A stretch of DNA of 64,000 bases from an uncultured Verrucomicrobia subdivision 3 bacterium (GTDB taxonomy: Bacteria > Verrucomicrobiota > Verrucomicrobiia > Limisphaerales > UBA11358), in contig CAIKKJ010000034.1 in NCBI GenBank assembly GCA_903827955.1, positions 2,946 through 66,945 of the forward strand, given 5' to 3'. Below are positions 1 through 18,742 of this stretch, one piece after another. Positions within the stretch are counted from its first letter, which is position 1. Every line of letters begins with the position of its first letter. Position numbers and translations under genes: made by a program. The notes beneath the pieces were generated by a model. It was not told the origin of the DNA. It ran no database searches and was given only the letters and a program-made list of their open reading frames with translations.

Positions 1-164
1 TCACCAGCGAGCGTGCGATTGCGAAGCACCTGCGTCATCGCCTTGTGACCCGCCACACGGCGAAAGCTGCCATCATCCAACAGCACGGGATTAGATTTCG
101 CCCAGGCGTTCCAAGCACGGCGCTGGTCGCGATTCAATTTTTTCCATTCGGTCGATAATTTCAT
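1..164 (-). CDS. hypothetical protein, N-terminal part only (continues beyond window start)
   Basis: ATG at 164-162 overlaps the stop of the upstream portal gene (ATGA at 161-164). Frame is open to position 1 (MKLSTEWKKLNRDQRRAWNAWAKSNPVLLDDG...). No family recognised. Confidence 0.4.
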   Translation of the reverse strand, partial: MKLSTEWKKLNRDQRRAWNAWAKSNPVLLDDGSFRRVAGHKAMTQVLRNRTLAG

Positions 165-1747
165 GGCGTCGTTTGTGGTTGTGCCGGAGGCGTTGCTACG
201 GGCGGGGTAGTGCCAGCATTAGGAAGACCCCCGGTCTGTTTCTCCTGACCGTTTTGAAAATTGCCCGTGCGGCTCGCACTGGGTTGTCCAGCTTTGACGA
301 GATTCTTTTCTTCATCATCCGTGCGTCCAGTGGGCAGGACTTCACCTTTACGGAAGAGATCAAACATGGTGGCCTGAGAGATGGCTCCAGCCTGCCAGGC
401 CGAGACGATGGCAGTGAGTTCCAGACTGGTCAGACCTTTGGCGGTGAAGTCAGTATTGATCTGGAGCAGGACGAGAGATTCACTGATGTCTTCGGGATAC
501 TGTTCAGTGGAGTTCCACCAATAGACCCAGCGAAGGACTTGGCTGATGGAGTCAGAGACAGACAAAGCCAGTGTCATCAAGATGCTATTCTCACCAGCTT
601 GACGGAGTTCAATGGCATCAGCAGTTTCACCGACACGTTTGGTGTCTTCCAGCATCCGGGAGCCGAGGACAGCCATGAGCCGTTCATCACGGTTTTGAGC
701 ATTCTCAAAGGTGGACAGACCATGACCTTTGAATTCAAGGAAGCCGGCGACAGCACCGACCGTGTCCGAGACCCAAGCCGTGCTGCTGCCGATGCGTAGC
801 TCCGAAGTTTTATCAAAGCCAGCGACCCAAGCGGTAGGCAGAGCAGTGAAGTGCAAGCCATGCTTGTAGTCAGCATCCAGACGGTAGTGATCCAGATTGA
901 CGGAGATGATGTCAGCCAGCGGCATCTTGTCCACGTCGGGCAGTGCGTTGCGTGGACCATGAAAGACAAAGGGAATCAGCGGCAGCGTTTTGCCCAGGCG
1001 GAGCGGCACACGGCTTTCCACCAGCGTCCATTTGGTCTTGGCTTGGCTGGCCTTTTGGCCGGGCCAGAAATTACCCATCCAAGAGGATTGGCTGTTCGCA
1101 CGGTGGCCGTCCGCAAGGACTTGCCAGACTTCGACAACGTAACGAGTGCTACCATCGGGCAGCACTTCCAACTTCAGCACGCGCACCGTTTCCGTAATTT
1201 TCACGGCGAACGGATCAGCATCGTCGGGACGTTCCACCATTTCACGGAGCGCCACCATCGTAACCACGTTGCGGCCATTGATGCGGGCAGCTTGCCAATT
1301 CAAAATATCCTCGGCGGCATAGCGGACAACATAAGCACGAGATTCACCATCGGCCTGCCAATCAATCAGCGTGCCACAGCGACCCACAGCAAGGACTTCA
1401 CCGACGACACCCTTGCAGAAAGTGAAGAGCGACGTGCCCATCAAATCCACGTCATCGGTGAAGACACGCAAGGCACCACCGACACCAGCATGGCGGTCAG
1501 GAAGTTTCACTTCGGGATCACGACGAAAGAGCAAACCGAGGAAGCCATCACAGGTGCGCGACGTGGCATTAAAGAAACAAGCACGGGATTTGTAGCCGAG
1601 ATAATCGTCATCCGTTTGGGAATCCAGACGAGGGAGATACATGATGCCACCAAGTTTCACGGCATCTTCACCAGCGATGACATCACGGGCGCGAAGCCAG
1701 GCAGGCAGGCTTGCGTCGTAATCAGGATGTGTCGAGTTCGCTGGCAC
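161..1747 (-). CDS. phage portal protein (DUF4055-like portal family), copy 1
   Basis: 528-aa ORF with GTG start. Roughly 55-60% identical by eye over its full length to ORF 14035-15558, which sits in portal-scaffold-capsid order. Shared blocks: STHPDYDAS..AW.RARDV.AGEDAVK, HYRL.ADYKHG.HFTALPTAWV.GFDK, SAWQAGAISQ.TM. Family name is from memory, not searched. Confidence 0.75.
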   Translation of the reverse strand: MPANSTHPDYDASLPAWLRARDVIAGEDAVKLGGIMYLPRLDSQTDDDYLGYKSRACFFNATSRTCDGFLGLLFRRDPEVKLPDRHAGVGGALRVFTDDVDLMGTSLFTFCKGVVGEVLAVGRCGTLIDWQADGESRAYVVRYAAEDILNWQAARINGRNVVTMVALREMVERPDDADPFAVKITETVRVLKLEVLPDGSTRYVVEVWQVLADGHRANSQSSWMGNFWPGQKASQAKTKWTLVESRVPLRLGKTLPLIPFVFHGPRNALPDVDKMPLADIISVNLDHYRLDADYKHGLHFTALPTAWVAGFDKTSELRIGSSTAWVSDTVGAVAGFLEFKGHGLSTFENAQNRDERLMAVLGSRMLEDTKRVGETADAIELRQAGENSILMTLALSVSDSISQVLRWVYWWNSTEQYPEDISESLVLLQINTDFTAKGLTSLELTAIVSAWQAGAISQATMFDLFRKGEVLPTGRTDDEEKNLVKAGQPSASRTGNFQNGQEKQTGGLPNAGTTPPVATPPAQPQTTP

Positions 1748-1920
1748 GCGGCGACTCTAGCACGGGATTTTTTTGCAATCGGATCACCCCAAAACTCACG
1801 ACTGCCAGAAGATGCCACACGCTGTCACACACCGTCACACGCTGCCAAACAAATTTCTCATTCCCGATTGACGATTATTTTATTTCTCCCGTCGGCAACG
1901 CGCGGCCGTGATGGCAGCAC

Positions 1921-2330
1921 AAAGTTAGTTCGCTGCGCTCAACAAAAATATCAGTTCGCGCTTTGCTCTGCGTCGCGCTCAACAATGACGAATCGCGCTC
2001 AAGTTCACGGTTTCCATTGTTCACGTTGTGCGGAGGTTTTATTGCTCGCTCTGCTCGGAGAATTGAGCCGCACATCAGGCGCGCACGCGGACGCCTGACG
2101 CTCATGCTCGGCAGTCCAGCGGCAGCCCGCTAAAGCGGTCTGCCACTGGCCATGCCGAGCACCGGCACGCCTTCATCGGCTCACGAGTGCCAACTTACGG
2201 CGTGCCTTTCGCTCCATCGCGTGCGCGTAGCACGGTTCAGGTTCGCGAATGTTAACGGCGCGCTTCATCATTCAGGTTCGCCACGCAACGGCGCGCTGGC
2301 AGGCATCGAACCCTCGTCGCTTCGCTCCTC
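1921..2330. repeat. copy A of a three-copy structured non-coding element (candidate ncRNA or att-associated element)
   Basis: Colinear with 4348-4850 and 16986-17388. Starts AAAGTTAGTTCGC. Contains paired segments 2075-2081/2092-2098, 2106-2113/2153-2160, 2116-2125/2140-2149, 2127-2130/2135-2138 and 2164-2171/2199-2206. No conserved ORF. Confidence 0.8.
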
Positions 2331-2395
2331 GACTGTGGTAAATGTATTCGCCGCACATTATGCGGCGATTAAGGCCCCAATTCACCGCACGCATC

Positions 2396-2426
2396 ACTTG
2401 ACTGATAACTTGACTGACACTTGACT
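2396..2426 (+). promoter_or_regulatory. three direct repeats of ACTTGACT (starts 2396, 2408, 2419)
   Basis: Period is 11-12 bp and each unit contains the -35-like hexamer TTGACT. Located between repeat copy A and the HEPN gene. Function (operator, iteron or promoter) is not determinable from sequence. Confidence 0.35.
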
Positions 2427-2555
2427 CATCTTTCTTCGGCTGACGGCGTGACCATATTGCCGCCAGCGATGGTTTCTGTTGCAGACATCATCGGTTTCCG
2501 TGATTCTGTGCCTGACCATAAAACTTTTCGGCTGAAGTTAGCGGGTGATCCATTT

Positions 2556-3095
2556 ATGTCGCGTGCATCCAACACATTTCTCGAAGCCATCAAGGACGCG
2601 GAAATCCTGCTCGCACAATTCGATGCCATCAACACGAAGCCGCCACCGCCCCACGCCGAGGTTCTAAAACGCGCCGGACTCATCATGGCTCTTACCGCCT
2701 GGGAAACTTACGTCGAAGACCGGGCTGCTGAAGCGCTGGAAGAACGCATCAAGGCTTTGTCTGGCAGTCCTTTTGCGGATTTGATCAAAAAGAAATTCCA
2801 GAAAGATTTGAAGCGCTTGAACAATCCCAACTCCACCAAGACCTGCAATTTGTTCATGGACTATTTGGGCATGGATATCGCGCAGCATTGGACCTGGACC
2901 AACATGGACGTGAAGATGGTGAAGCAGCGGCTCGACGACCTGCTTGCGAAGCGTGGCAGCGCGGTGCATCGCTCCAAGGCCGCGGCCGCCAGCCCTCAGA
3001 ATGGTCATTTGGTGAAGCGCGAGGAACTCGACAAGGGCATCAAGTTTTTGAAGACGCTGGTGGAGCGAAGTGAAAAGGCGTTCACTTCCGCCTGA
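2556..3095 (+). CDS. HEPN-domain protein (RiboL-PSP-HEPN-like)
   Basis: ORF is open from TTG 2421, but third-position GC rises only after ATG 2556. KRGSAVHRS fits the HEPN Rx4-6H motif. The WETYVEDR helix resembles RiboL-PSP-type HEPN proteins (recollection). Confidence 0.55.
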   Translation: MSRASNTFLEAIKDAEILLAQFDAINTKPPPPHAEVLKRAGLIMALTAWETYVEDRAAEALEERIKALSGSPFADLIKKKFQKDLKRLNNPNSTKTCNLFMDYLGMDIAQHWTWTNMDVKMVKQRLDDLLAKRGSAVHRSKAAAASPQNGHLVKREELDKGIKFLKTLVERSEKAFTSA

Positions 3096-4257
3096 CTTCA
3101 CTCAAGCTTTCGCCGGGCGTCAGGTGCGCCGGCTCTTCGAGGATGTCCAGCAGGGCATTGGCGCAATACACGCGACCACGTTTAGCGTCACCGACTTGCT
3201 TCACGATTTTCAACCGTTCCAGCCGTTCGATGGCGCGTTGCGCCGTGGTAAAGGCAAACCCCAGTTTTTCCGCCGCACCCTTCGCGGTGATGAACGGATT
3301 CGAGGCCAGCAGTTCCACCACGCGCAGCGGCGCGTGGGTGGAGTCGCCGGAGACTGTTTTCTGCCACTCGGCCAGCAGGGCGTTCATGCGGGTCGCCCGG
3401 CTCAAGGCGTCTTCCGACATGCGGGCCACGCCGAGCAGGAAGTATTCGAGCCATTCATTCCATTCGCCCCGCTCGCTGACACCCCGAAGCCCTTCGTAAT
3501 AATCGCGACGCGCCTCTTCAAAAAATGCTGAAAGATACAGCAGCGGTGTCGGCAGGATGCCGCGTTCGATCAGAAAGAGCGTGATGAGCAAACGCCCCAC
3601 GCGGCCATTGCCGTCAAGGAATGGATGAATGGCTTCGAATTGGTAGTGTGCCAGCGCAACGGTCACCAGTGGCGGCAGATCGGAGTCATGCACAAACTTT
3701 TCCCACGCCGCCAGGCAGGGCTCGATTTCAGCCGGTGGTGGCGGCACAAACGAGGCTGTCTCCGGCGTGCTGCCCGGTTTGCCGATCCAGTTCTGGATTT
3801 TGCGGAAGCGTCCGGGCATGGCCCGTTCGCCGCTGACACCGGTCATGAGTTTTTCATGCAGCTCCCGGATGATGCGGATGCACAGCGGCAGATCCTTCAG
3901 GCGCTTGATGCCATGTTCCAGCGCGATGACGTAGTTTCCCACTTCCCGCAAATCTTCGGGACTGCGTTCCACGACCGCGCCGGCTTCCGCCGCCAGCATT
4001 TCGCCGAGCGTCGCCTGTGTCCCTTCAATCTTGCTCGATAGCACGGCTTCCCGTTTTACGAATGGACGCATCAGCACATGCGGATTCGGCAGACGACCGC
4101 CTTCCCCCGCCAGCTTCCCAACCAGACGATCCGCCTCCGACAACACCCGCATCAGCCGCGGAGTCCAGATGATCTTCGGCGGCAAGGGTGCCGGCACAAA
4201 GGCGGCATATTTGCCCAGCGGCACTTTGCGTCCAGGAATGTTTAATTTGCTGGCCAT
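3082..4257 (-). CDS. Fic family protein (AMPylase-type, with N-terminal inhibitory motif and C-terminal wHTH-like tail)
   Basis: HPFLDGNGRVGRLL matches the Fic motif HxFx(D/E)GNGRxxR. SSKIEG matches the inhibitory (S/T)xxxE(G/N) motif. ATG 4257 (MASKLNIPG...) is preferred over the ORF opening at 4302. The 3' end overlaps the HEPN gene by 14 nt, convergently. Confidence 0.85.
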   Translation of the reverse strand: MASKLNIPGRKVPLGKYAAFVPAPLPPKIIWTPRLMRVLSEADRLVGKLAGEGGRLPNPHVLMRPFVKREAVLSSKIEGTQATLGEMLAAEAGAVVERSPEDLREVGNYVIALEHGIKRLKDLPLCIRIIRELHEKLMTGVSGERAMPGRFRKIQNWIGKPGSTPETASFVPPPPAEIEPCLAAWEKFVHDSDLPPLVTVALAHYQFEAIHPFLDGNGRVGRLLITLFLIERGILPTPLLYLSAFFEEARRDYYEGLRGVSERGEWNEWLEYFLLGVARMSEDALSRATRMNALLAEWQKTVSGDSTHAPLRVVELLASNPFITAKGAAEKLGFAFTTAQRAIERLERLKIVKQVGDAKRGRVYCANALLDILEEPAHLTPGESLSEVRRK

Positions 4258-4273
4258 AACGTTGCTTTCGGTC

Positions 4274-4302
4274 GTGATAATAGCACAACCTGCTATTATC
4301 AC
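4274..4302. promoter_or_regulatory. perfect 12-bp inverted repeat GTGATAATAGCA-caacc-TGCTATTATCAC upstream of fic
   Basis: Read directly from the sequence. Lies 17 nt upstream of the fic ATG (4257). Operator-like geometry. Confidence 0.5.
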
Positions 4303-4347
4303 AAAAGCACAAATACGCTAATAGCGGGATTCCTTGTTTTCACGGCT

Positions 4348-4850
4348 AAAATTGAGTTCGCTGCGCTCGACAGAATTTAAGTTCGCGCTGCACTTCGCTC
4401 GCGTGCTCAACAGGAGAACACGAACGCGCTCGGATTCACGGTCTCCACGCTCGAACGTTGTGCGGAGTAATGTTAGATCGCTCCGCTCACAGAATTGTCC
4501 CGCACATCAGGCGCGTGCGCGGACGCCTGACGCTCATGCTGGCGGCGGCGGCTAACGCCACCGCTACGCCAGCACCGGGCCGCCTTCACAGGTTTACGAA
4601 TGGTTTCTCACGGCGGCCCTTTCGCTTCCGCGCGCACGCGTCGAACGTCGCAGGTCATCGAACGGTTTCCGCGCGATCCAACCATTCGGGTTGGCGGATG
4701 ATTTAAGCGCGCGGCCAGGCGGGGAAAAGTTAGTGGATTGCTGACTCGTCGCTGTCGCTCCTCGCGGGGGGCGAACGCGCACTGCGTTTGCGGTCGCCTT
4801 TTTGTTTTCAGAGGCCGCGAGGCTTCGCCACGGCCAAGACACAGCAATAT
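4348..4850. repeat. copy B of the three-copy structured non-coding element
   Basis: Starts AAAATTGAGTTCGC. Paired segments: 4460-4465/4500-4505, 4507-4513/4524-4530, 4538-4552/4557-4573, 4577-4584/4612-4619, 4628-4635/4707-4714. Shares an extra 3' block (CGCGAGGCTTCGCC...CAGCAATA) with copy C only. Confidence 0.8.
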
Positions 4851-6020
4851 CACGCCCAGGCCGGCGGCTTGGGCGTGCCGGCCATGCAACAGTTCCCGGC
4901 TGTCACAGAGCGGACACTTGCGCTCGTGCCTCGCGCCAAGTATCCGCACTGTTCGGCCCGCGCCCGTGACGGACTCGTCAGTTTGCGCCCAAGCTGCCCG
5001 CCGGCTGTTATTGATGTCACGCACCACCAAAGCGATGGAACTTGCCATGTTGGTCAGCTCACAAATCTCCCCGTCCCCTGGTCTCATTTGATCCAGCCAA
5101 GCCCGCAAATTATCATGAACGGGCACAATTCGACGACTGGCCGTCTTTGATTTGGTGACGCGCACTACCACGTAATCTTTTGCCAATTGCAGGTCCGCCC
5201 ACTCCAGCCGTTGGAGTTCCGCATGGCGCACGCCCGCAAAAGCCCCGATCACCATGAATGGCTTAATCCGCTCCGGCGTGAAGCAAAGAATTTCAACCAG
5301 CTCTGCCGGCGTGAAAAATTCGGTTTCCGTCGGCGGCTCTTTGATCGCCGGCACCGCGCATAATTCGTCATGGTCCCGGGGCAAATACCGCCGCCGCATG
5401 GCGTATATGAATAATGAATTGATGGCCTTGCGCAGGTTGTTTTGCGAACACGCCCCCACACCTAGTCCCCGCAGCCACTCATTAATTTCAGGCCCGCGAA
5501 TATCGGTGATGTTCCCCTTGAACCGCTTTGTGAATTGTCCCAAGGCATGGCGCATGGACTTGATATAGCTGTCGGTCAGCAACGCCTCGTCTTTTGAATT
5601 CAGCAACTCCTCCACCACGTCCGCGACGGGCATTTTCAATCGGCCCGGTGCCCACTCCAGAAAGTAATCCACAGCCTCGTGCAAATGCACTGTGCCCAAT
5701 TTCTTCATGGCCTCCGCATACTCCATCGCCGCCGACTGGACACTCACGCCGAGCGGATCCAGATAGAACCGTGCCGCTTTATAGTCCAGCCGGTCGTTGG
5801 GACTTAATTCGAGCACGAGCCCCTCCTGCTTGTCCAATTTACCAGCTACAAATCTGGCCTCTTTTTTAGCTTTTTCAAAATCAGAAAAAACCGTCCGCTT
5901 GCGCATCCTGCCCAGATAATAACTGACAAAATAATCCACCCGTCCCTTATTCATGCAGCGATAGATTTTAACCTGCACGGAGCCTTTTTGGATCACGACT
6001 GGAAATGTTTCATCGTCCAT
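4608..6020 (-). CDS. tyrosine recombinase/integrase, probably 3'-truncated (reading frame runs into repeat copy B)
   Basis: ATG 6020 (MDDETFPVVIQKG...). Catalytic Arg box AFAGVRHAELQRLEWADL and beta-hairpin Lys (VTKSKTASRRIVPV) are present. No HxxR...GH...Y block follows. The last ~90 codons are antisense to repeat copy B and look non-protein-like. Confidence 0.6.
   Translation of the reverse strand: MDDETFPVVIQKGSVQVKIYRCMNKGRVDYFVSYYLGRMRKRTVFSDFEKAKKEARFVAGKLDKQEGLVLELSPNDRLDYKAARFYLDPLGVSVQSAAMEYAEAMKKLGTVHLHEAVDYFLEWAPGRLKMPVADVVEELLNSKDEALLTDSYIKSMRHALGQFTKRFKGNITDIRGPEINEWLRGLGVGACSQNNLRKAINSLFIYAMRRRYLPRDHDELCAVPAIKEPPTETEFFTPAELVEILCFTPERIKPFMVIGAFAGVRHAELQRLEWADLQLAKDYVVVRVTKSKTASRRIVPVHDNLRAWLDQMRPGDGEICELTNMASSIALVVRDINNSRRAAWAQTDESVTGAGRTVRILGARHERKCPLCDSRELLHGRHAQAAGLGVILLCLGRGEASRPLKTKRRPQTQCAFAPREERQRRVSNPLTFPRLAARLNHPPTRMVGSRGNRSMTCDVRRVRAEAKGPP
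4770..4808 (+). terminator. candidate intrinsic terminator inside copy B
   Basis: GGCGAACGC (4770-4778) pairs with GCGGTCGCC (4790-4798) with one mismatch, followed by TTTTTGTTTT. This segment is an insertion specific to copy B. Confidence 0.45.
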
Positions 6021-6150
6021 GCTTGATTTTACAACGCCGCAACCTCTTTTGCAGCCTGTCCCCAGCACTGGGGACAAGACGAAAATTCCCGCTGTGTTAA
6101 TCTAAAGTCGTTGGGAGTAGTGACCCAACCGAAAAACAAGTGTTGAAGAA

Positions 6151-6443: not shown

Positions 6444-7514
6444 TCAAAAGTGAAACTCCGGTTCCGGCGGCGATCCTTTCCGCCGCTTTGGCACCTTGAG
6501 CTTTTCCGCCTCCGCTTTCCAGCGGGCGATCATCTTCTGGATCTGCCCGCACTGGTAACGCATCCGCAGTAAATCATCCATCAACTCGCGCCGTATCTGC
6601 CCGGCCAGCGTCTCATGATCGCTGCGGCGGGAAAAATCCCACGCCGGTTTCCTGCGCTGCTGGGTGATCTGCCGTTTGATTTCGCGCAAGGAAGTTTTCA
6701 ATTGCGCCGTGATCCGTTGCAGCAGCGAGGCGCTGGTGTTCGCGGTGGTGCCGCTTTCACCAATCTCGCAAAGCGTGAGAATGACTTCCAGTTGCTCCGC
6801 GTCGCCCGCTTCGTAGGCAATCTGCGCCTCATGCCACCATTCGGTCTTCTGTGCCGTCATTTCCTGCTGACTGTCCGGATGCAATTGGCGCACCAGCTTT
6901 CGATAAAGTTCCTTGAGCCGTTTGGACGCATGCGGCGGTGGCATTGGCTCGCCCGGCGGTTCGTCCTCGGGACCGAGATAGTCTCGGGGATGCGCATCCG
7001 CCCCGAAACGACGATGGAATTCTTTCTTAATTTTCTCCAGCAGGGGATCCTCGTCGAAGTCTTCAGATTCCGGTCCCGACCCAAAGGCATCCCGCTTCCC
7101 TTCCGCATTGTCGCCGGCGGGCGGGGGAGGCGACGAGCCGGGGTTTTCACGGCGATCCATTACCCGCTGATAGGCCCGCGCGTCGGAAAACCCGCCGAAC
7201 TGGGCCTCATAATCGACCTGTTCGATGAGCAGACTATCCCTTTCCATCTGCAGATTAAGTTCCCGGAGTTCCGTGAGCAGCGCTCCAAAATGACTGTGCA
7301 TCCAGCGCATGAACTGCGGCTCATCCGTCTGGTGAAATTGGTCGAGCACACTCCGCGATTTTGCCAGATCGCGCAACGCCTTCTCGTAGTCCTTCTTGAT
7401 CTTTTTCCGGATGCCCGTGCCATCCACCCGCACCATCGCGCGGCAATGAATGGCCGGTTTGGCATCATCAACGGCTTGGCTGTTGATCGGTTTTCTAGTC
7501 GCGCGGCGTGGCAT
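6444..7514 (-). CDS. J-domain-like protein
   Basis: 356 aa. KELYRKLVRQLHPDSQQE contains the HPD tripeptide in a J-domain-like helix context. The rest is charged and coiled-coil-like. Start not verified. Confidence 0.45.
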   Translation of the reverse strand: MPRRATRKPINSQAVDDAKPAIHCRAMVRVDGTGIRKKIKKDYEKALRDLAKSRSVLDQFHQTDEPQFMRWMHSHFGALLTELRELNLQMERDSLLIEQVDYEAQFGGFSDARAYQRVMDRRENPGSSPPPPAGDNAEGKRDAFGSGPESEDFDEDPLLEKIKKEFHRRFGADAHPRDYLGPEDEPPGEPMPPPHASKRLKELYRKLVRQLHPDSQQEMTAQKTEWWHEAQIAYEAGDAEQLEVILTLCEIGESGTTANTSASLLQRITAQLKTSLREIKRQITQQRRKPAWDFSRRSDHETLAGQIRRELMDDLLRMRYQCGQIQKMIARWKAEAEKLKVPKRRKGSPPEPEFHF

Positions 7515-7658: not shown

Positions 7659-9326
7659 TCAGCCTTTCAGCAACTTCAGCAATCGCTTCTTGTCCTTCTG
7701 ATTCTTCTTGCCCGTCATACCCTCGATAATTTTCCGCATCTCCGCTTTCTGTTTATCCGCCTCGGCCTCGGTTGCAAGTGGCGCCGCCACCGACACGACC
7801 TTTTCTTCCTCCGCCCCATAGGTCAGCAGCGCCGGCATTGCCTTGTTCAGCGCCGTTCGGAACGCCTCGCGCCCCGGCTGGAAATAATGTTTCAGCACAA
7901 TGTCAGTCGTCTTGTGCCCTGTCACCTTCTGCACCAGTTCCAGCGCCACCCCGGCCGTCAGCGCCAGCGTCACCCACGTCACGCGGAAGCTGTGGAAATC
8001 CCGCACGCTCGCCGATCGCAAGCCATGTTTCCGTTCCACATACAAACCGGCTTTTTCCATGCCGTCTTTCACGCTGTCGCCTTTGTTCGCGTGGCTGGAG
8101 CCGCGCACAATCAGGCACCCGATGGCCTGTTCAATCTCGTTGAGATAACCCGAGACGCTGCCTTTGCTCACATTGACCGCCGCCATTACAGATTGGATGT
8201 TGTTACCATCCATGTAGTGCCGGAACACCATCGCCATCCGGGATCGTTTCTCGCCTTCCGGCAACGCCGCGATGTATTTCTCGCCTCGCTCCCGCGCCAG
8301 CGCGTCGGAAACTTCCGGCAACGCTTTCGTTTCTTCCCCCGCCTCCACTGGTTTTCTGAGCCCCACCGCCAGAATCTTTTTCACGCGCCAGGTGATGCCA
8401 TCCGGGTTTTCATCATACATCTCCGCTTGGTCAGGAAAAACATAACCGGTGAGTTTCGGCCCTGCCTCTTTTGCCAGCTTTTTCAGCTCCGCTGCCAGCA
8501 TGGGGAAAATGGGGATGCTAACGGTCTGACCGGTCTTCGAGGTTTTTACCGTGATGAAATGGTTTTTCAAATCCACATCCTTCCATTCCAGCAGACAACA
8601 ATCCCCGCGCCGCATGGCGGTGCACATTCCCGTGATGATGATCGGCCGAATGAAATCATCGTCCTTCGCCGCCTCATTGATTGCCCCCAGTTCTTCCGGC
8701 GAGAATGGCTGGCGAAACACAGTTTCCGTTTCCTTCGTCGGTGTGTCGGCAAAATGGTTGATGGCGCCCGCCGGCAGCAGATGCTTAAAAGTTGCCCGTA
8801 GCAGCTTGAGCGTGTCATTCCAGGTTTTGCCCGTGACGTGCCGCCCAGCCTCCTCGTCCAGAAAAGACCGGGCCATCGTTCCCGTAACGAAGGCGATTTC
8901 GACCACCTTGGGATTTTTCTTCTGCACGAATTCTACAAACCGGTTTAAGGTGGATTCGCACTGCTTCGCGTAGCGGGCATTCGGCGCTCGTCGCCGCGCA
9001 ATCTTCCCCCATTCCGCCGCTAGGTTTTCCAACTTCACCGACTTGATGGTTTCTCCAGTCTCATGCTCATACAATTTCTTTATCAAACGCACCGCCCCCT
9101 GTTTTGAGCGCGCCTCCTCGACGATTTGATTCAGCTTCGCTTGGGCGGCAACGCGCGAACATTCAAACGCCGTGTCGCCCGCTTCTTTCAGCGATTGGGA
9201 TTGCGGAGGCGTGCCGGCGATTTTAACGCCGAGATTGGCGCAGAATCGTTTGCCATTAATTTCATAACGGCCATACCAGAAGGGACGCAGTTGGCCGCTT
9301 AATTTCCATCGCAATTCGAGGGGCAT
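7659..9326 (-). CDS. tyrosine recombinase/integrase (phage integrase family) with a long insertion in the catalytic domain
   Basis: Catalytic signature is complete: R (TAMRRGDCCLLEW), K (VKTSKTGQTV), HSFRVTW, TGHKT, KHYF. A ~150-aa insert with an HTH-like segment lies between the K and HxxR boxes. Confidence 0.85.
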   Translation of the reverse strand: MPLELRWKLSGQLRPFWYGRYEINGKRFCANLGVKIAGTPPQSQSLKEAGDTAFECSRVAAQAKLNQIVEEARSKQGAVRLIKKLYEHETGETIKSVKLENLAAEWGKIARRRAPNARYAKQCESTLNRFVEFVQKKNPKVVEIAFVTGTMARSFLDEEAGRHVTGKTWNDTLKLLRATFKHLLPAGAINHFADTPTKETETVFRQPFSPEELGAINEAAKDDDFIRPIIITGMCTAMRRGDCCLLEWKDVDLKNHFITVKTSKTGQTVSIPIFPMLAAELKKLAKEAGPKLTGYVFPDQAEMYDENPDGITWRVKKILAVGLRKPVEAGEETKALPEVSDALARERGEKYIAALPEGEKRSRMAMVFRHYMDGNNIQSVMAAVNVSKGSVSGYLNEIEQAIGCLIVRGSSHANKGDSVKDGMEKAGLYVERKHGLRSASVRDFHSFRVTWVTLALTAGVALELVQKVTGHKTTDIVLKHYFQPGREAFRTALNKAMPALLTYGAEEEKVVSVAAPLATEAEADKQKAEMRKIIEGMTGKKNQKDKKRLLKLLKG

Positions 9327-10307: not shown

Positions 10308-10628
10308 TTATTTTCCTTCCTGAAATCGGCGCAGTTCAAACGCGCAGTCATTAAGCGCCGCCGTGTTGTGGTCAATGCAGACGGCCAACTTCATCGCCGT
10401 CTCATTTTGCTTTTCGATGATTTGCGTCAGGGCCGCATGATGCTCGTCGCGCAACGCCTTGTGATCCGAAATCACGGTTTGAAGCTGTTGCACCAGCCAA
10501 TAAATCACCACGCCGCAAACGAGCAGCAGCAGGCAAAACGCCGCGAGAAACAACCAGCGGTCATTCATGCTGGCAGCGTGATCCACCGCTTGGAGAAAAT
10601 CGGCCGTGTTCATATTGGTCATATTCAA
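10308..10628 (-). CDS. small membrane protein (one TM helix + coiled coil)
   Basis: 106 aa. Has the WLFLAAFCLLLLVCGVVIYWLV helix. Start overlaps the stop of the upstream gene by 4 nt. Confidence 0.5.
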   Translation of the reverse strand: MNMTNMNTADFLQAVDHAASMNDRWLFLAAFCLLLLVCGVVIYWLVQQLQTVISDHKALRDEHHAALTQIIEKQNETAMKLAVCIDHNTAALNDCAFELRRFQEGK

Positions 10629-12238: not shown

Positions 12239-13249
12239 TCAGATGTTGTGTGTCACGGCCACGACCGGGACGTTTTTGTTTTCCCACACGCGCACCCAGT
12301 TGGCGGCGGTGGCCAGTTCAGCGTTGGTCGGATTTGCACCGGCCACGCTCGCGCTGGTGAACTTCACACCGCGAGGGTGCAGGATGAAGCGGCGACGATT
12401 GACGAGGAACGTGTCGCTGTTGAGAGCGTCACGCGCCATTTCCATGCCTTCCGTGCCGTGACCGCCTTCGACAGGCGCACCGTTCAGATCGGCAAAGCCC
12501 ATACCGAACGCACCGTTGCCGAATAGATAGGTCGTATAGACCACGCCGTCAGTCGTGCCAGCGCGCGACGGGCAGCCGTCATCCACGATGACCCGACGGC
12601 CTTGGAACGTCTTGATTTGAGTTTCACCCTGGCTGTCCGGGATAAAATCAATCAGGTCGAGCTTGCGCAGCGCGGCTTCCACTGCGGAGTGCATCGCCAC
12701 GGCCACGAGCCGGTCGCCACGGTCGCCGAGGCGTTGCGTCGCATCCACGAAGGTTGCGCCGTTAAGCCGGGTGGCCGAGGTTTGCGCCGCGACGCTTTCG
12801 GATTGGATCGCCAACAGATTGCCCGCCATGCTCGCCGCACCGAAAACGCCGGTGAGGGAGTTGATGAGCATATACTGGTTCTGACGGTTCCAGTAATCGG
12901 CGATAAAGTCCGCCAGCGCCAGCGCCGGATCGTCACCGGCAACTTGCGTCGCCAGATGATTCCACGACCACGCATTGCCGTCGTTGTGGATGCGGGCGAT
13001 GTCCTGGTCAGCGACCAGTTTCGCCGGCACGAGCGGTGCCGAATCGGAAAGCGGCTGGCGGTTGCCCGTCAGATCATTCCAGTGGGGCATGTTGACTTGC
13101 GTGCCGCCGAGGGCCGCGCGCTCGTCATAGTCCGGCGTGCGGATGACAATGCCGGATTGAAACAGGTCGGATTTTTCCGCCGTGCGTTGAAGGACGTAGC
13201 CAGCGAATTGCGCTGGCACGATGATGTCTGCAAGTTGTGTCTTTGCCAT
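12239..13249 (-). CDS. major capsid protein (HK97-fold, N4-gp56/T7-like type)
   Basis: 336 aa, directly after the scaffold gene. The N-terminus MAKTQLADIIVPAQFAGYV resembles this capsid family (recollection). Confidence 0.7.
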   Translation of the reverse strand: MAKTQLADIIVPAQFAGYVLQRTAEKSDLFQSGIVIRTPDYDERAALGGTQVNMPHWNDLTGNRQPLSDSAPLVPAKLVADQDIARIHNDGNAWSWNHLATQVAGDDPALALADFIADYWNRQNQYMLINSLTGVFGAASMAGNLLAIQSESVAAQTSATRLNGATFVDATQRLGDRGDRLVAVAMHSAVEAALRKLDLIDFIPDSQGETQIKTFQGRRVIVDDGCPSRAGTTDGVVYTTYLFGNGAFGMGFADLNGAPVEGGHGTEGMEMARDALNSDTFLVNRRRFILHPRGVKFTSASVAGANPTNAELATAANWVRVWENKNVPVVAVTHNI

Positions 13250-13272: not shown

Positions 13273-14028
13273 TCACGCGGCGGCTTTCAAACGGGCAGCC
13301 AGCGCAGGATCGGTTTTCTGCAATTTCATTTGCTCCGTGAGATTCCACGTTTCCTTGCGGAACGGGTTTTTCGCGGACCGGTTGCCAGCCCCACCGGAGC
13401 CGGAGCCGGCAGCACCGCTGCCAGCGTTTGCTTCAAACAGGTGCGGCGCGTCGGACACCAACGCATCCACCCATTCGGCCAAAGTCAAAGCAGCCGCGCC
13501 GTCCTTGCCCGTGCGGGCAGTCTGGCCGTCGGCCTCAAAAGCCTGCGGCACGCCGTTGACGAGCTTGAACGTCTGGCGAGCACGCGAAGTGATGTCAGGA
13601 ATCGCCGTCGGCCGCAGACCACGTTTCGTGGCTTCGGTCACGACGGCTTGATCAATCTGAATTGCCGACAAGCGGCCAAGCAGCGTGTCACGCTCGCCGG
13701 TCACGGCGGAAAATTGTTTGTCCCAATCCGTCTTGGCCGTCTTGAGCCGCGCGTCCAAGACCTCTTGAAATTTGCCGTCCTTCAGCCGTTGTTCATCTTC
13801 CAAACGCTGCTTGTCGGCGGCGAGCTGACGCACGGCGTCAGGGTCAATGCCTTCAAACTTCTTGAGCTGGTTCGTCAGCGTGATGTTGTTCTGGCGGAAC
13901 TCATCCAGCTTGGTTTGACTCACGACGCCATCGGCATCCAGCACGAACGCACCGTCGCGCTCGACGTAAAAGGATTGATGTTCAGCAGGGATTTCCTGCT
14001 TCGTTGCATATTTGAATTTCAGGGGCAT
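13273..14028 (-). CDS. phage scaffolding protein
   Basis: 251 aa, lying between portal and capsid. Charged coiled-coil middle, Gly/Ser-rich segment and basic C-terminus. Confidence 0.65.
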   Translation of the reverse strand: MPLKFKYATKQEIPAEHQSFYVERDGAFVLDADGVVSQTKLDEFRQNNITLTNQLKKFEGIDPDAVRQLAADKQRLEDEQRLKDGKFQEVLDARLKTAKTDWDKQFSAVTGERDTLLGRLSAIQIDQAVVTEATKRGLRPTAIPDITSRARQTFKLVNGVPQAFEADGQTARTGKDGAAALTLAEWVDALVSDAPHLFEANAGSGAAGSGSGGAGNRSAKNPFRKETWNLTEQMKLQKTDPALAARLKAAA

Positions 14029-14034
14029 AAACTT

Positions 14035-15558
14035 TTAATTCACGGTTACAGGGTTGGCGTTCACATCACCGGGAACCGTCGGCGTGACGGGAACAGTTGG
14101 TTTGGTTTTCTTCTCGCTGGCGAGCAAGGCTTGCTCTTCTTCGTTCGTGCGACCGGGAGCGATGACCTCGCCAGCACGGAACAGGTTGAGCATCGTGTCC
14201 TGACTGATGGCGCCAGCTTGCCACGCGGAGACGATGGCGCTGATTTCCTGATACGTCATGCCAGCGAAATTGAAATCCGTGTTCAGGCTGGCAAGCACGA
14301 GGTCCGCACCGATGGCGTCAGGAATCGGCTCGGTCGAGTTCCACCAATAGACCCAGCGAAGCACCTGCGTCAGCGACGCGCTGACGCTCAAGGAAATGGT
14401 GTTCAAGATGGAGTTCTCGCCAGATTGACGGAGTTCGATGGCGGCAGCGGTTTCACCGACACGCTTGCGGGATTCGAGCATCCGCGTGCCGAGGACGGCC
14501 ATCAGTTGCTCGTCACGATCCATCGCACGCTCAAAGGTGGACAGACCTTGACCGTGAAATTCCAAGAAGCCAGCCGTGGCACCAGGAGTTTCCGCGACCC
14601 ATGCCGTGCTGCTACCAATGCGCAGCGTCGAAGCCTTGTCAAAGCCACTCACCCAAGCCGTCGGCAGGGCGGTGAAGTGCATACCATGCTTGTAGTCGGC
14701 ATTGAGACGGTAGTGATCGAGGTTGACGGCGATGATGTCTTCCAGCGGAATCTTGTCCACGTCAGGCAGCGAGTGACGCGGGCCGTGAAAGACAAAGGGA
14801 ATCAGCGGCAGAGATTTTCCAAGACGCAGCGGCGTGACGGTTTCAATCAGCTTCCATTCGAGACGTGTGCGAGCACGTTGACCGGAGGTGACGGGATTCT
14901 TGGGCAGCTTGCGCCAGACATCCACTTGATAAGTCCAATCAGTTTGCTCGTCGTTGCTAGACGATTGCGAAGGGACGAGTTTCAGGACGCGCAGTTGCGG
15001 GTAGGCAGTCGGACAGAAGGAGTCAGTGACCGAGGCAGTGTCTTGAAAAGTTTCTTGCAGGACTACCAGCGTCAGGACGTTGCGACCATTCACGCGCTGC
15101 GTCTGCCAGTTGATGATGTTTTCAGCAGCGTAGGCGACAGCATAGGCGCGTGGTTCAGTCTCGTTGTTCCAGTCAATCAGCGTGCCAGCACGACCGACGT
15201 TGATGATTTCCGTGACGAGCTTCTTCGAGAAGGCAGTCAGTGGCGTGCCAAGCATATCGGCATCGGCGACGAACTCAGCAAGCGAAGAACCGACACCGTT
15301 GGACTTGTCGGGCAGTTTGAAGGTTGGATCACGACGGAAGACCAGACCGACGAAGCCATCAGCCGTGCGAGCAGAAGCGTTGAAGAAAGAAGCACGGTTT
15401 TTGTAAGCGAGATATTCCTTGTCGTCCTGACAGTCCAGACGTGGCAGATACTTTTCAGCAGCAGCTTTGACGGCATCCTCACCGGCGAAGACATCACGGG
15501 CACGTTGCCATGCAGCGATGCTGGCGTCGTAATCAGGATGTGTCGAGTCCACTGGCAC
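14035..15558 (-). CDS. phage portal protein (DUF4055-like portal family), copy 2
   Basis: 507 aa with GTG start. Paralogue of 161-1747. First gene of a portal-scaffold-capsid operon. Confidence 0.8.
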   Translation of the reverse strand: MPVDSTHPDYDASIAAWQRARDVFAGEDAVKAAAEKYLPRLDCQDDKEYLAYKNRASFFNASARTADGFVGLVFRRDPTFKLPDKSNGVGSSLAEFVADADMLGTPLTAFSKKLVTEIINVGRAGTLIDWNNETEPRAYAVAYAAENIINWQTQRVNGRNVLTLVVLQETFQDTASVTDSFCPTAYPQLRVLKLVPSQSSSNDEQTDWTYQVDVWRKLPKNPVTSGQRARTRLEWKLIETVTPLRLGKSLPLIPFVFHGPRHSLPDVDKIPLEDIIAVNLDHYRLNADYKHGMHFTALPTAWVSGFDKASTLRIGSSTAWVAETPGATAGFLEFHGQGLSTFERAMDRDEQLMAVLGTRMLESRKRVGETAAAIELRQSGENSILNTISLSVSASLTQVLRWVYWWNSTEPIPDAIGADLVLASLNTDFNFAGMTYQEISAIVSAWQAGAISQDTMLNLFRAGEVIAPGRTNEEEQALLASEKKTKPTVPVTPTVPGDVNANPVTVN

Positions 15559-15695: not shown

Positions 15696-16727
15696 TCACG
15701 GATGCACGAGACGAAAGAATTTATTTCCAGTCGAGACAGGAATCGTGACGGTGACGGTGGAAGCATTGCTGCTGATGTTGCCGGTGTAGGCAGTCCAGTT
15801 GGTAGAGCCAAGATTCGTGGTTTGTTGCAGCGAGAAGCCTGATGCTCCCGAAGGCCAGGACAGTGAGAGGTTGGTTCCATTCGAGACGATTCCAGATAAA
15901 GGCGGTGAGACGACCGGCATCGGTTGACCATCCACTTTGGCACGGAGGACAGCAGCGGTGTATGGCGACAGAGACGAAAAGAATGTATATCCGGTGATGG
16001 TTTGAAGTTGGTTGACCGAGACGAGATAGTTTGTCCAAGGTGCAGACCGGATTCCGGCGATGTTCGGGATGTTGACGGCGATGACACGGGTTGCAGTCGT
16101 GATACGATTGGTTGCCATGTCAGTTCCGTTGGTGACGATGACGATGATTTTCCAGACGTTCGACGGAATATAGACCAGACCAGCAGCATTGATTTGATTC
16201 GTCCCGAATCCACTTGGCCCACAGGTTATCAAGACTTCATTTCCCTGTGAGGCAATCGTCCGACAGTAGGTTTCAAGATTTGCCCACACACCCTGATTGT
16301 TGTCCGGTGTCTGCGGAATGATGTTCGACATGAAGAATACCAGGTCGTTGACTTCGACGCTGACAGTTCGATCTCCAGATGGACACATGTGTCCACGGTC
16401 ATATCCCGATCCACTGTAATCCGTGGGTTTGACCTCATAAAAACTTGATGGCAAGTTCGTGTCCAATAAGAAATTTCCACGTCCACTTGAGCCTACGTCG
16501 TCAGTCGTTAAGTCCCAGCTTGCCCAATTTGGTTCCCGAAGATTGTCGTTGTAGTCTAGGGCTTCGGCGGCGCGTTGAATCAGATAGTGACTGTGGTTAT
16601 TCGTGTCAGACGTGGCGTTGCTGGGATTGCCAAGTTGCATTTGAAATTCGGTCCCGATTTTGGCGTGAGCAGAAAAGACGTTGATGGCAAAGAGAAGCAC
16701 GCTGGCGGTGAGCCAGCTTTTCGTCAT
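15696..16727 (-). CDS. secreted DNA/RNA non-specific endonuclease (Serratia NucA / DRGH family) with C-terminal beta-sandwich-like domain
   Basis: SGYDRGHMCPSGDR carries the DRGH active-site motif and NIIPQ..DNN follows. Signal peptide MTKSWLTASVLLFAINVFSAHA from ATG 16727. GC is visibly lower than in the neighbours. Confidence 0.8.
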   Translation of the reverse strand: MTKSWLTASVLLFAINVFSAHAKIGTEFQMQLGNPSNATSDTNNHSHYLIQRAAEALDYNDNLREPNWASWDLTTDDVGSSGRGNFLLDTNLPSSFYEVKPTDYSGSGYDRGHMCPSGDRTVSVEVNDLVFFMSNIIPQTPDNNQGVWANLETYCRTIASQGNEVLITCGPSGFGTNQINAAGLVYIPSNVWKIIVIVTNGTDMATNRITTATRVIAVNIPNIAGIRSAPWTNYLVSVNQLQTITGYTFFSSLSPYTAAVLRAKVDGQPMPVVSPPLSGIVSNGTNLSLSWPSGASGFSLQQTTNLGSTNWTAYTGNISSNASTVTVTIPVSTGNKFFRLVHP

Positions 16728-16985
16728 TTTGTTTGTGGCGTTTCGGTTCAAGCTGCGAACGATTAGGATAGCACAATTCGCGATGTTGTCTTTAAGCATT
16801 TCGACGATTCAATTTTCGGCAGCAATCGAGAAGTTTGGTTTAAGATTTTTTCATCTTTTGACCCCGGTAATTTTTTTGCGTGTGATAATTCGTGAGACTT
16901 TTATTTTTCGACACGGGCGACCAGATGAAGTTGTGTGTCGTGGGCAATGTGAATGTTTGTGGTAATTCGGATGCGCTCGAAAGAC

Positions 16986-17388
16986 AAAGTTAGTTCGCGT
17001 TGCTCAACAGATAATTCAGTTCGCGCTTTGCTCTGCGACGCACTCATCCAACACGAACGCGCGCAACCATTCACGGTTTCCATTTGCGAACGTCATCAGG
17101 CGCGTGCGCGGATGCCTGACGCTCATGCTGGCGGCGGCGGCTAACGCCACCGCGACGCCAGCACCGGCACGCCTTCACTGGTTTACGAAAGTCACACTCG
17201 GCGTGCCTTTCGCTACAGCGCGCACGCGGCGGACATCGCAGGTTGGCGAATGTTTGCAGCGCGATTTAACCATTCAGGTTGGCGGATGATTTAGCGCGCT
17301 GTCAGGCAATGAAACCTCGTCGCTATCGCCGAAGACGAAAGCATTAGCATCGCGAGGCTTCGCCCGATGCAAGGCATCAGCAATAGTC
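16986..17388. repeat. copy C of the three-copy structured non-coding element
   Basis: Starts AAAGTTAGTTCGC. Paired segments: 17096-17102/17113-17119, 17127-17141/17146-17162, 17166-17173/17200-17207, 17216-17223/17294-17301. Lacks the 46-nt hairpin present in copies A and B. Confidence 0.8.
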
Positions 17389-17812
17389 GCGGCGACGGTC
17401 CAGCTTTCGGTCGCTTCGCTGCTCGCCGGTGCGGCTCGCACCTACGCTCCCGAAACTGGCCGCCCCCGCTGGAAAAACCAAATCAGTCCGAGACCCCGGC
17501 GCAGGGTTTCGTTGGCCTGCTGGCTCAGGTTTGACCCTGTCCCCCGCAAACTGGCCATCATTCCACTAGACCCAACGCCGGGGACTCAGAGAAATTGGCA
17601 CCGCGCTATCGCGACTGTGCCGGGAAACGAAGTGACCCGGCAAAAAAATTGAAGCGGCTCCGCTCACGGGGTTGGCATGACGGAACATCTCCGGCTACGG
17701 TGCTCGTGCCTGCGCGCCTGTGCCTCCGATTTGCTTCCGAGACATTCACACAACACATATTGTGTGTTTGGTCGGTGAAACCACGCCGACACCTCCCACA
17801 TAAATTCTGATC

Positions 17813-18742
17813 GTGCCGACACACCACGAACCTGCCGACATTGACGTCGCCAAAGAAACCTGGGCCGAATTCTTGCGGCAATGTCACCCCGAAGAATTTC
17901 GCAAAGGCGGCAACCGCGTTTGCGTGCCGATGATTGTCGGCGACGAAATCCTTGGCGTCATCATTCTTGGCGACCGCGTGGGTGGCGCGCCGTTCAGCTG
18001 GCAGGATTTTGATTTGCTCAAATGTATCGGCGACCAGGTGGCCGCTGGTCTGCTCAACACACGCCTTTCCCAAAAGCTCGTCCAGGCCAAGGAACTCGAA
18101 GCTTTCCAGACCATGTCCGCGTTTTTTGTGCATGACATGAAAAACACCGCCAATACGCTAAACCTGATGCTGCAAAATTTACCCGTGCATTTCGACAATC
18201 CCGAATTTCGCGCCGACGCCTTGCGCGGAGTCGCCAAAACCGTCGGCCGCATCAACCATCTCATCGGCCGCCTCGGCTCCATCCGCAGCGAACTCCAGAT
18301 CAAACCTGTCGAAGCCGACCTGAACGCCGTCATCGCCAAAGCCCTCGAAGGCTGGGAAGAAATTGCGGGCCTTAATCTCAAAAAGGAATTCACCGCACTG
18401 CCGAAATTCCTTTTTGACCCCGAACAGATGTTGAAAGTCGCTACCAACCTCATCTTCAATGCCCGCGAAGCTGTCGCTCAAGACGGACAGGTGCAAATCC
18501 ATACCGCACAGAAAAACGGCTACATCATTTTGACTGTCACTGACACCGGCTGCGGCATGAGCCCCGAGTTTCTGAATCGCCAGTTGTTCCGCGCCTTTCA
18601 GACCACCAAGAAAAACGGACTAGGCATCGGCATGTTTCAGAGCAAGATGATTGTCGAAGCGCACAAAGGCCGTCTGGAAGTTGAAAGCGAATCCGGCAAA
18701 GGCACCACCTTCCGCGTCGTGCTGCCGTTGAAAACCAAATAA
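17813..18742 (+). CDS. histidine kinase, PrsK-like (PEP-CTERM-system type), 5'-truncated: end of GAF + HisKA + HATPase_c only
   Basis: FFVHDMKNTANTL H-box, NPEF, N-box NLIFNAREA, DTGCGM, GLGIG. An in-frame stop lies at 17808-17810 immediately upstream. No TM or sensor region is present, and the sequence starts in mid-GAF. Confidence 0.7.
   Translation: MPTHHEPADIDVAKETWAEFLRQCHPEEFRKGGNRVCVPMIVGDEILGVIILGDRVGGAPFSWQDFDLLKCIGDQVAAGLLNTRLSQKLVQAKELEAFQTMSAFFVHDMKNTANTLNLMLQNLPVHFDNPEFRADALRGVAKTVGRINHLIGRLGSIRSELQIKPVEADLNAVIAKALEGWEEIAGLNLKKEFTALPKFLFDPEQMLKVATNLIFNAREAVAQDGQVQIHTAQKNGYIILTVTDTGCGMSPEFLNRQLFRAFQTTKKNGLGIGMFQSKMIVEAHKGRLEVESESGKGTTFRVVLPLKTK

Follow-up and report, generated by a model that had tools for sequence, protein, structure and literature searches.

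A 64-kb stretch of DNA from an uncultured Verrucomicrobia subdivision 3 bacterium (contig CAIKKJ010000034.1, positions 2,946 to 66,945), called here the window, raises the question of what a non-coding element of about 400 nucleotides (nt) is, and what it does, when it recurs there in three diverged copies beside phage-like genes. An earlier note, made from the sequence alone, had pointed to three colinear, diverged, non-coding copies in one orientation, and this was borne out by alignment, by blastn and by profile search. We found that the copies, hereafter the copies of the module, are real, non-coding, about 350-420 nt long and apparently undescribed. The module is predicted to be one domain of a conserved, structured non-coding region of 1.3-2 kb with about 320 conserved pairs. 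The best overall explanation, which we hold about equally likely to be right or wrong, is a large structured RNA region of satellite-like islands.

Three copies of a structured non-coding module

The three copies, A, B and C, and a conserved extension beside copy C lie in the window as follows.

1921..2333, no strand assigned: copy A of the ~400-nt structured module (nhmmer E 5e-101), 174 nt from the start of portal gene 1
4349..4765, no strand assigned: copy B, of the 'B-type' subfamily with an additional AAAAGTTAGTGGATTGCTGA insert (nhmmer E 7e-125), 47 nt from the start of the Fic gene
16986..17337, no strand assigned: copy C, without the optional 46-nt hairpin (nhmmer E 4e-94), 187 nt from the start of the EndoNS gene
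16880..16985, no strand assigned: conserved extension next to copy C, on the side nearer the portal, TTCGACACGGGCGACCAGATGAAG..GGTAATTCGGATGCGCTCGAAAGAC, common to most relatives

The pairwise identity of the three copies is 72-78%, with a mean column identity of 73% in a MAFFT alignment of A, B and C. When each copy was compared with the window by blastn, A matched B at 71% over 371 nt (E 1e-38) and C at 67% over 413 nt (E 1e-32), and the match between B and C, at 86% over 216 nt (E 1e-66), corresponded to the 3' two-thirds. A fourth copy was not found in the 64-kb window, either by blastn with each copy or by the profile hidden Markov model (HMM), and four occurrences of GTTCGCNNNGCTC were counted in the window, where chance would give 0.38. 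The finer details given in the earlier note were also recovered. Pairs of GTTCGC direct repeats start at 1928/1954, 4356/4381 and 16993/17019, with a spacing of 25-26 nt; the ordered blocks TTCACGGT.TCCA, CATCAGGCGCG..CGCGGA.GCCTGACGCTCATGCT, CACCGG..GCCTTCA, CCTTTCGCT and CCTCGTCGCT were seen; and the 46-nt indel is a hairpin that is present in A and B and missing from C. The similarity is mosaic, as had been claimed: B and C have the hairpin TGGCGGCGGCGGCTAACGCC.. in common, and A and C have GGCACGCC..GGCGTGCC where B carries GGGCCGCC..GGCGGCCC. The ends first given for B (4850) and C (17388) need correction, with the three-way homology stopping at about 2333, 4765 and 17337. The longer versions of B and C had taken in a terminator-like hairpin and small hairpins of the next conserved block. 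Upstream of C, conservation runs about 110 nt further in most relatives, and the extension at 16880..16985 would be either part of the transcript or else its control region. Two further features follow copy B.

4766..4812, plus strand: covarying G+C-rich stem followed by TTTTTGTTTT, intrinsic-terminator-like, directly after copy B and also in B-type copies elsewhere
4817..4839, no strand assigned: small hairpin GGCCGCGAGGCTTCGCCACGGCC, whose minus-strand reading is GGC-GAA-GCC (GNA triloop)

Relatives of the module were found with a degenerate pattern taken from the most conserved block, then with a second pattern and then with nhmmer. In species-representative genomes, 10 loci were recovered, all in metagenome-assembled genomes of Verrucomicrobia (Limisphaerales / subdivision 3) and several with more than one copy. 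The module is also present in at least 120 metagenome contigs from peat, bog, lake and soil, and in 6 IMG/VR contigs of 13-23 kb. Across the loci listed, nhmmer gave 140 copies; the profile HMM was used for copy recovery, and 62 distinct full-length copies were aligned. Besides the window, 11 loci hold two or three copies in one orientation, 0.8-5 kb apart where intact. The closest identity to copies in other genomes, among the loci listed, is 87% for A, 87% for B and 81% for C. The window copies are thus nearer to copies of other genomes than to each other, which indicates distinct lineages and not a local duplication, and A, B and C appear to be separate lineages that were joined through tandem islands and cargo insertion. 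Positions 4343-4872 of one related locus (L008; such L-numbers are the locus labels of the relatives) hold rearranged, partly duplicated module fragments by a truncated tRNA-like sequence, which suggests a copy that has decayed or recombined.

The module is not a protein gene, in agreement with the earlier claim. In 62 distinct homologues, every frame contains stops (2.5-5.8 per frame on average), 1308 of the 1554 internal gap runs are not multiples of three, the conservation has no detectable codon periodicity, and no open reading frame (ORF) is conserved. Two apparent families of conserved ORFs over the region, one of 78 members on the plus strand and one of 34 members on the minus strand, were rejected as low-complexity Arg/Ala/Pro translations of conserved DNA; the minus-strand ORF at 17606-18133 belongs to the same class and is probably not a gene. 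The earlier statement that the element is neither an insertion sequence nor a tandem repeat also holds, with no flanking inverted repeats found at the module copies and no transposase found among the window proteins. An insertion sequence or miniature inverted-repeat transposable element (MITE) was rejected on the same grounds, the copies being located only beside head genes.

Searches for known families agree with the view that the module is not any named RNA. Rfam 15 gave no match at the gathering score in the whole window, and at E<=10 only noise was returned over 1800-5000 and over positions 1-2300 of locus L036. In six related loci, only tmRNA and tRNA scored, both outside the element. 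ARAGORN found no tRNA or tmRNA gene in the window, and in the related loci the tRNAs lie clear of the element. No match came from blastn searches of phage and plasmid collections, and a description of such an RNA was not found in the literature. A Rfam match and a conserved ORF, which the earlier note had named as outcomes that would speak against it, were both sought and neither appeared. Antisense pairing between the GTTCGC motif and the portal start was considered and rejected: the start of portal 1 has AGTTCGCTG and that of portal 2 has AGTCCACTG, so the match in portal 1 is a coincidence.

Comparative analysis predicts that the module folds into a conserved multi-helix structure. RNAalifold, run on 12 and then on 62 distinct copies, gave helices with many compensatory changes, and helices were then derived from column-pair statistics. 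A fixed, hand-derived structure of 8 helices and 52 pairs was tested on the 62 copies. Paired cells amounted to 96.2%, compared with 85.3% after shuffling (0 of 500 shuffles as high) and 27-51% with the partners slid. Double-change cells numbered 304, in 19 pairs, compared with 108 after shuffling, and the covariation score was 0.261, compared with 0.091 shuffled and 0.016-0.050 with the partners slid. This strong covariation agrees with the earlier note, which had described the element as one with helices. The hairpin with the conserved loop GCTAACGC has a stem in at least five unrelated sequence versions, and the hairpin GGCACGCC..GGCGTGCC alternates with GGGCCGCC..GGCGGCCC or GGCCAGCC..GGCTGGCC. 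A domain of about 80 nt is closed by a 9-bp helix, and this domain and two hairpins are enclosed by a long-range helix CGCCTG/CAGGCG, with C-G in 44 sequences and U-A in 15. A local hairpin CAGGCG..CGCCTG was rejected, as it is not kept in all subfamilies and its 3' half covaries with the distant CAGGCG instead.

A second non-coding block of about 950 nt was found within 1.5 kb downstream of the last module copy in 50 of 62 loci, 48 of which have it on the same strand. With L036:1081-2039 (959 positions) as reference, 33 distinct full-length versions share 55-100% identity (median 69%). Stops occur in all six frames in 31 of these 33 sequences, indels are mostly not multiples of three, codon periodicity was not found and Rfam gave no match to the block. 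RNAalifold predicted about 280 pairs, including a helix of 20 bp, in which 15 pairs show double changes, and a 21-bp helix that closes a 300-nt domain. When the structure was derived from half of the sequences, 90% of it was paired in the other half, compared with 32-42% when slid, and 111 double-change pairs were counted, compared with 28-43. A single block sequence folds about 9 standard deviations below its shuffles, equally on both strands. The window holds just two fragments of the block, which do not overlap.

4897..4992, no strand assigned: block fragment, positions 5-99 of 959, with a 16-bp covarying hairpin, after copy B and ended by a deletion
17323..17823, no strand assigned: block fragment, positions 301-772 of 959, after copy C

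Small hairpins with a covarying outer stem and the core GCGAGGCTTCGCC are located at 4817-4839 and 17352-17375. In relatives, three to four small hairpins were seen per block (for example at 1289-1313, 1365-1389 and 1404-1427 of L036), and on the minus strand they are GGC-G(A/G)A-GCC triloops.

Satellite-like islands that carry the module

In the carriers, head genes were named by PHROGs, and in L036 names could also be given to TerL, TerS, primase/helicase and integrase. Of the 30 loci with 3.5 kb or more of sequence on that side of the module, 23 have a portal gene within 4 kb of it. Its orientation is always opposite to the plus strand of the earlier note, and scaffold and capsid genes come after it. 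The gap between portal and module varies from 132 to 3188 nt and is occupied by unrelated accessory genes, as is the space that separates module copies in tandem; among these genes are an AAA ATPase with DUF234, a DUF1349 protein, SRAP, a calpain-like protease, Sel1, TPR, a PLD nuclease, Fic and EndoNS. On the other side, the longer contigs contain small genes (one DUF6573) and then TerL, TerS, helicase, primase and integrase, all of which share the orientation of the capsid genes. The IMG/VR contigs repeat this gene order, with the module between terminase and portal. The module is always on the portal side, in a fixed orientation, at the border of an accessory-gene hotspot.

The islands end at a tRNA in L036 and, in a shorter version, at a tmRNA in L084. 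The tRNA (L036 12610-12684, minus strand) and the tmRNA (L084 5378-5731, minus strand) directly adjoin the island integrases and are likely the integration targets of the islands. With the ends at tRNA or tmRNA genes by the integrase, the module is internal to the island and not an attachment site. Islands that lack a primase, namely those of the window, L083 and L084, retain the region. Tail or lysis genes were not seen in the stretches examined, and the presence of head and packaging genes with no tail genes seen makes the carrier resemble a capsid-forming satellite. The gene sets would fit a capsid-forming satellite, several of the ORFs being unnamed and the contigs perhaps partial. The gene content suggests that the carrier is an integrative element of 13-23 kb that encodes head and packaging enzymes and one or two tyrosine integrases.

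In the window, the genes around the module copies are the following.

161..1747, minus strand: portal protein 1 (DUF4055 / phrog_145), first gene of the island 1 head operon, adjoining copy A
2421..3095, plus strand: HEPN RiboL-PSP accessory gene, between A and B
3082..4302, minus strand: Fic/DOC accessory gene with a winged helix-turn-helix domain, between A and B, with its own sigma-70-like promoter at 4304-4277
5000..6077, minus strand: tyrosine integrase remnant, without the C-terminal catalytic region
7659..9326, minus strand: full-length tyrosine integrase, 555 aa
10625..11179, minus strand: head-tail adaptor Ad1, island 2
12239..13249, minus strand: major head protein, island 2
13273..14028, minus strand: head scaffolding protein, island 2
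14035..15558, minus strand: portal protein 2, 61% identical to portal 1
15696..16799, minus strand: DNA/RNA non-specific endonuclease (EndoNS), accessory gene between portal 2 and C
6444-7514, 9682-10305, 10308-10628 and 11189-11845, all minus strand: island ORFs without family assignment

All genes from B to C lie on the minus strand, in the order integrase remnant, 356-aa ORF, integrase, two small ORFs, adaptor, unnamed ORF, major head protein, scaffold, portal 2 and EndoNS, and host chromosomal genes begin about 0.5 kb to the right of C. Homologues of terminase, primase and the small genes were not found in the window. The integrase remnant keeps the N-terminal domain and the region of the first catalytic Arg, and lacks the His/Arg/Tyr part that is present in the L083 homologue; the listed ORF of 489 aa (4608-6077, minus strand) runs on to 4608 through non-coding sequence. 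The break in the integrase coincides with the end of the block fragment at about 4993, and this junction of a block fragment with a catalytically truncated integrase points to a deletion scar. We read the window as two decayed islands in tandem and in one orientation. Island 1 would comprise head genes past the left edge, portal 1, A, HEPN, Fic, B, the block fragment and the integrase remnant, perhaps also the 356-aa ORF and the full integrase, and island 2 the small ORFs, adaptor, capsid, scaffold, portal 2, EndoNS, C and the partial block, with host DNA next. In two metagenome contigs of the European Nucleotide Archive (L137 and L138), the portal is identical to portal 1 and the Fic-HEPN-portal order is the same, which indicates that island 1 is unchanged in independent samples; after the portal there come genes of 200 aa and 257 aa and one that is capsid-like.

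Several other observations were made along the window. The 356-aa ORF at 6444-7514 has a weak DnaJ-like stretch, and other islands also have homologues of 9682-10305 and 11189-11845. At 2389-2425, three ACTTGACT repeats stand close together beside a module copy; such triplets were also seen after the first copy in L007 and upstream of the second in L118, with CCTTGACG x3 upstream of the first copy in L027, and these repeats could be operator or promoter sites. Between portal 1 and A, at 1815-1850, there are repeated CACACGCTG(T/C)CA words, which are kept in L004 and, in looser form, in L007; they could represent a control region of the head operon. A histidine-kinase-like ORF with only a partial GAF domain (17813-18742, plus strand) begins where the block homology stops, at about 17823, and may be a host gene truncated by the insertion. 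Further right, a single 739-aa frame (20575-22794, minus strand) contains low-molecular-weight phosphatase, RpiB and serine hydroxymethyltransferase domains, and may be a fusion, or adjacent genes with no intervening stops.

Strand, molecule and possible role

The folded molecule is probably RNA, and it is somewhat more likely than not to be read on the strand of the capsid genes, which is the minus strand of the window. The plus strand assumed by the earlier note is not secure: the terminator-like hairpin is on that strand, whereas loop motifs and fold z-scores favour the minus strand. Hairpin loops read on the minus strand are GNRA in 23 of 33 cells and GNA in 87 of 158, with none on the plus strand. 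Unpaired residues are 34% C on the plus strand, hence G-rich on the minus strand, and Y·Y mismatches are three times as frequent as R·R mismatches on the plus strand. The alifold energies are lower on the minus strand than on the plus strand (-578 vs -524 and -191 vs -184), and so are the fold z-scores of A (-3.26 vs -1.79), B (-2.09 vs -0.67) and C (-2.63 vs -1.36).

If the minus strand is the functional one, the head operon would be preceded by a long structured leader, or by a processed RNA, made up of block and module, and every copy in the window would stand just upstream of a gene: A before portal 1, B before Fic and C before EndoNS. Read in this way, the module is directly ahead of a gene in six of eight tandem loci examined. 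Judging by position, it is possible, though tentative, that the module acts in cis on the expression of the next genes. For example, capsid and accessory genes might be held back until a helper phage or an induction signal arrives; what a satellite would need is that its head genes stay silent until then. The conserved module could also be a homologous landing pad for swaps of accessory genes between islands, and exchange at the conserved flank of a cargo slot would explain the additional copies of another subfamily and the mosaicism of A, B and C. A bolder proposal is that module and block form a giant, ornate nucleic-acid machine of 1.3-2 kb and about 320 pairs that is selected for perfect Watson-Crick pairing, works through both strands, in the form of single-stranded DNA or as a rigid RNA architecture, and has a direct role in the life cycle of the island. 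This role could be helper-phage sensing, capsid assembly or packaging, or gating of defence cargo, and would not be that of an ordinary regulatory leader; we consider this proposal rather unlikely.

Several findings weigh against an RNA read from the minus strand as a leader of the genes beside it. In the helices predicted on both strands, the module has 2268 Watson-Crick, 4 G·U and 12 A·C cells, and the block 6507, 131 and 186. Such a scarcity of G·U is unusual in RNA. With G·U as rare as A·C, the usual strand test based on wobble pairs is uninformative, and with wobble pairs nearly missing, the sequence does not by itself prove RNA. The covarying stem and T-run after B-type copies would make a good terminator on the plus strand, a T-run stands at the end of the block on the plus strand, and the block is co-oriented with the small genes after it (fam8, DUF6573). 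No convincing promoter was found on either strand by a sigma-70 scan or by eye in the aligned upstream regions, and the Fic gene has a promoter of its own. About 40% of the accessory genes are on the other strand, so a module that precedes a gene is not universal. The islands of the window are decayed, with a truncated integrase and a fragmentary block, so the copies here may no longer work.

The plus-strand findings just given are also the main grounds for a different RNA, a plus-strand non-coding RNA (ncRNA) whose transcription would begin in a divergent control region and run away from the portal, either stand-alone or as a leader, and which would act in trans or on the leftward operon. Such an RNA might be a stable RNA, with the B-type copies carrying their own terminator, or the start of a leader for the plus-strand genes after the block (fam8, DUF6573 and others). 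T-runs follow directly on the covarying stem of the B-type copies and on the closing helix of the 950-nt block. In L036, L131, L132, L134 and L136, the module, block, fam8 and DUF6573 share one orientation with a 488-aa gene, and all of them converge with TerL. One candidate helix (A3 columns 113-120 / 239-246) has C<->U changes opposite an invariant G, and such changes are tolerated only on the plus strand, but equally G·U-rich strand-specific helices are predicted on the minus strand (588 cells), so the A3 helix does not discriminate. The A- and C-type copies have no terminator, no plus-strand promoter was recognised by the sigma-70 scan or by eye, and loop motifs, fold z-scores, alifold energy, unpaired composition and mismatch spectrum all favour the minus strand. 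We consider a plus-strand RNA doubtful, though it keeps a sizeable minority of our belief. The scarcity of wobble pairs raises the alternative that the pairing acts in DNA, where a folded or extruded single strand would serve as a signal for replication, priming or packaging, or as a set of hairpin promoters. Helices made up of Watson-Crick pairs alone, in which G·U is not more frequent than A·C (10 pairs tolerate at least 15% G·U and 12 tolerate A·C), fit this idea, as do compensations dominated by G-C<->C-G or A-U<->C-G transversion swaps, which prevail in all well-supported helices of module and block. Many of the small minus-strand hairpins are GC-GNA-GC or GGC-GAA-GCC; hairpins of the d(GCGAAGC) type are classic, very stable DNA mini-hairpins, and phage N4 has early promoters that consist of DNA hairpins whose loops are 3 nt long. 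Full islands encode a primase and a helicase, but the islands without a primase (those of the window, L083 and L084) retain the region, and in L036 it is about 4 kb from the primase gene. The use of a terminase and a portal by the islands implies packaging of double-stranded DNA, and about 320 conserved pairs that are nested, long-range and multi-branched over at least 1.3 kb far exceed, to our knowledge, any known DNA signal. A role at the DNA level is therefore improbable in our judgement.

Two further explanations fare worse. Duplication of an attachment site, by integration into a host ncRNA gene, would produce direct repeats in one orientation that bracket mobile DNA with integrases, and in the window an integrase gene does come after B and host genes soon after C. 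However, complete relatives end at a tRNA or tmRNA by the integrase, 5-12 kb from the module, and this led us to reject duplication by tandem integration. The module is internal, in the terminase-portal interval, in the IMG/VR contigs; each copy is of full length and has flanks of its own, copies in tandem come from different old subfamilies, and no locus was seen in which a copy lacked island genes on both sides. We regard an attachment-site origin as extremely improbable. A selfish or neutral repeat with no island function, whether MITE-like, like repetitive extragenic palindromes or a quasi-palindrome made by template switching, would account for several copies per genome and many small hairpins, and the scarcity of G·U would fit correction of palindromes at the DNA level. 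It is at odds with the fixed position and orientation relative to the portal, with the lack of any copy in the 46 kb of host DNA in the window and with the lack of terminal inverted repeats. Long-range helices 90-300 nt apart covary, and loops and junctions are conserved among copies that are just 54-72% identical overall. Such a repeat is very improbable. The reading that we prefer remains a large structured RNA region of satellite-like islands.

Known systems and significance

Large, highly structured bacterial RNAs are rare, and nearly each of them revealed unexpected biology. GOLLD and ROOL are large ornate ncRNAs that are often found in prophages and are represented by Rfam families (PMC12286853). 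The region resembles them in its length, in its lack of coding capacity and in covarying pairs that number from dozens to hundreds, in being carried by phage-like elements and in having been found by comparative sequence analysis. It differs in that it has no similarity in sequence or model (Rfam, E<=10), occurs in another host phylum, sits at a terminase-portal site in a head-only island, repeats one of its domains around accessory genes and nearly lacks G·U pairs. In length, covariation and phage-like carrier, the region agrees with the large ornate phage-associated ncRNAs, and it has no homology to GOLLD or ROOL. On these features, we rate it as probably of that kind, closest to GOLLD and ROOL, and as a new class; there is also a real chance that it is something categorically new.

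The carrier resembles the satellites known as phage-inducible chromosomal islands (PICIs) of the capsid-forming type (PMC10085698). Shared features are the size of 13-23 kb, an integrase end by a tRNA or tmRNA, primase/helicase, TerS and TerL, portal, scaffold, capsid and adaptor genes of its own, tail and lysis genes not seen, and hotspots of defence-like genes. Unlike in capsid-forming PICIs, the carrier proteins matched only generic PHROG/Pfam head families and not the markers of these islands. We know of no satellite family with a conserved structured non-coding region of 1.3-2 kb.

Smaller cassettes and signals resemble parts of this arrangement. The PeSL 'mobile regulatory cassettes' of T4-type phages, reportedly described by Arbiol and colleagues in 2010, are likewise repeated, conserved non-coding cassettes that flank variable accessory ORFs, and recombination can shuffle the cargo and give mosaics. 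They are short, with a promoter and one stem-loop, whereas the module is about 400 nt long and has at least 8 conserved helices. The nut/boxB sites of lambda and the put sites of HK022 are leader RNAs of phage operons, 15-70 nt long, with a known protein or RNA polymerase partner. The region would share with them a structured RNA ahead of phage genes, and it resembles them in occurring more than once in a genome and in small hairpins whose loops are GNRA-like, but it is 20-100 times larger. Integron attC sites are single imperfect palindromes of 60-140 nt with a GTTRRRY core, and Frpo, a single-strand promoter of plasmids, is one hairpin of about 300 nt. The module is comparable to attC and Frpo (ssi) in keeping structure over sequence, in strict Watson-Crick pairing, in cargo-side repeats in one orientation and in the presence of tyrosine recombinases; it differs in its multi-branched fold, in that an integron integrase was not found and in cargo that lies in either orientation. 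An integron attC site was rejected, given an element of 350-420 nt with a multi-branched fold, a Fic gene with its own promoter and integrases that match generic Phage_integrase only; the core motif was judged by eye.

The region is widespread in peat, bog, lake and soil metagenomes, yet it is missing from Rfam 15. It is located at the junction of the packaging and head genes of small capsid-encoding islands, where exchangeable defence-like cargo sits, and it offers a practical marker for such islands and their cargo hotspots in Verrucomicrobia. If the folded molecule is RNA, the region would be a new giant class and the first candidate for RNA-based control in capsid-forming satellites. If the Watson-Crick-only helices reflect an action as DNA or through both strands, the region would be even more unusual.

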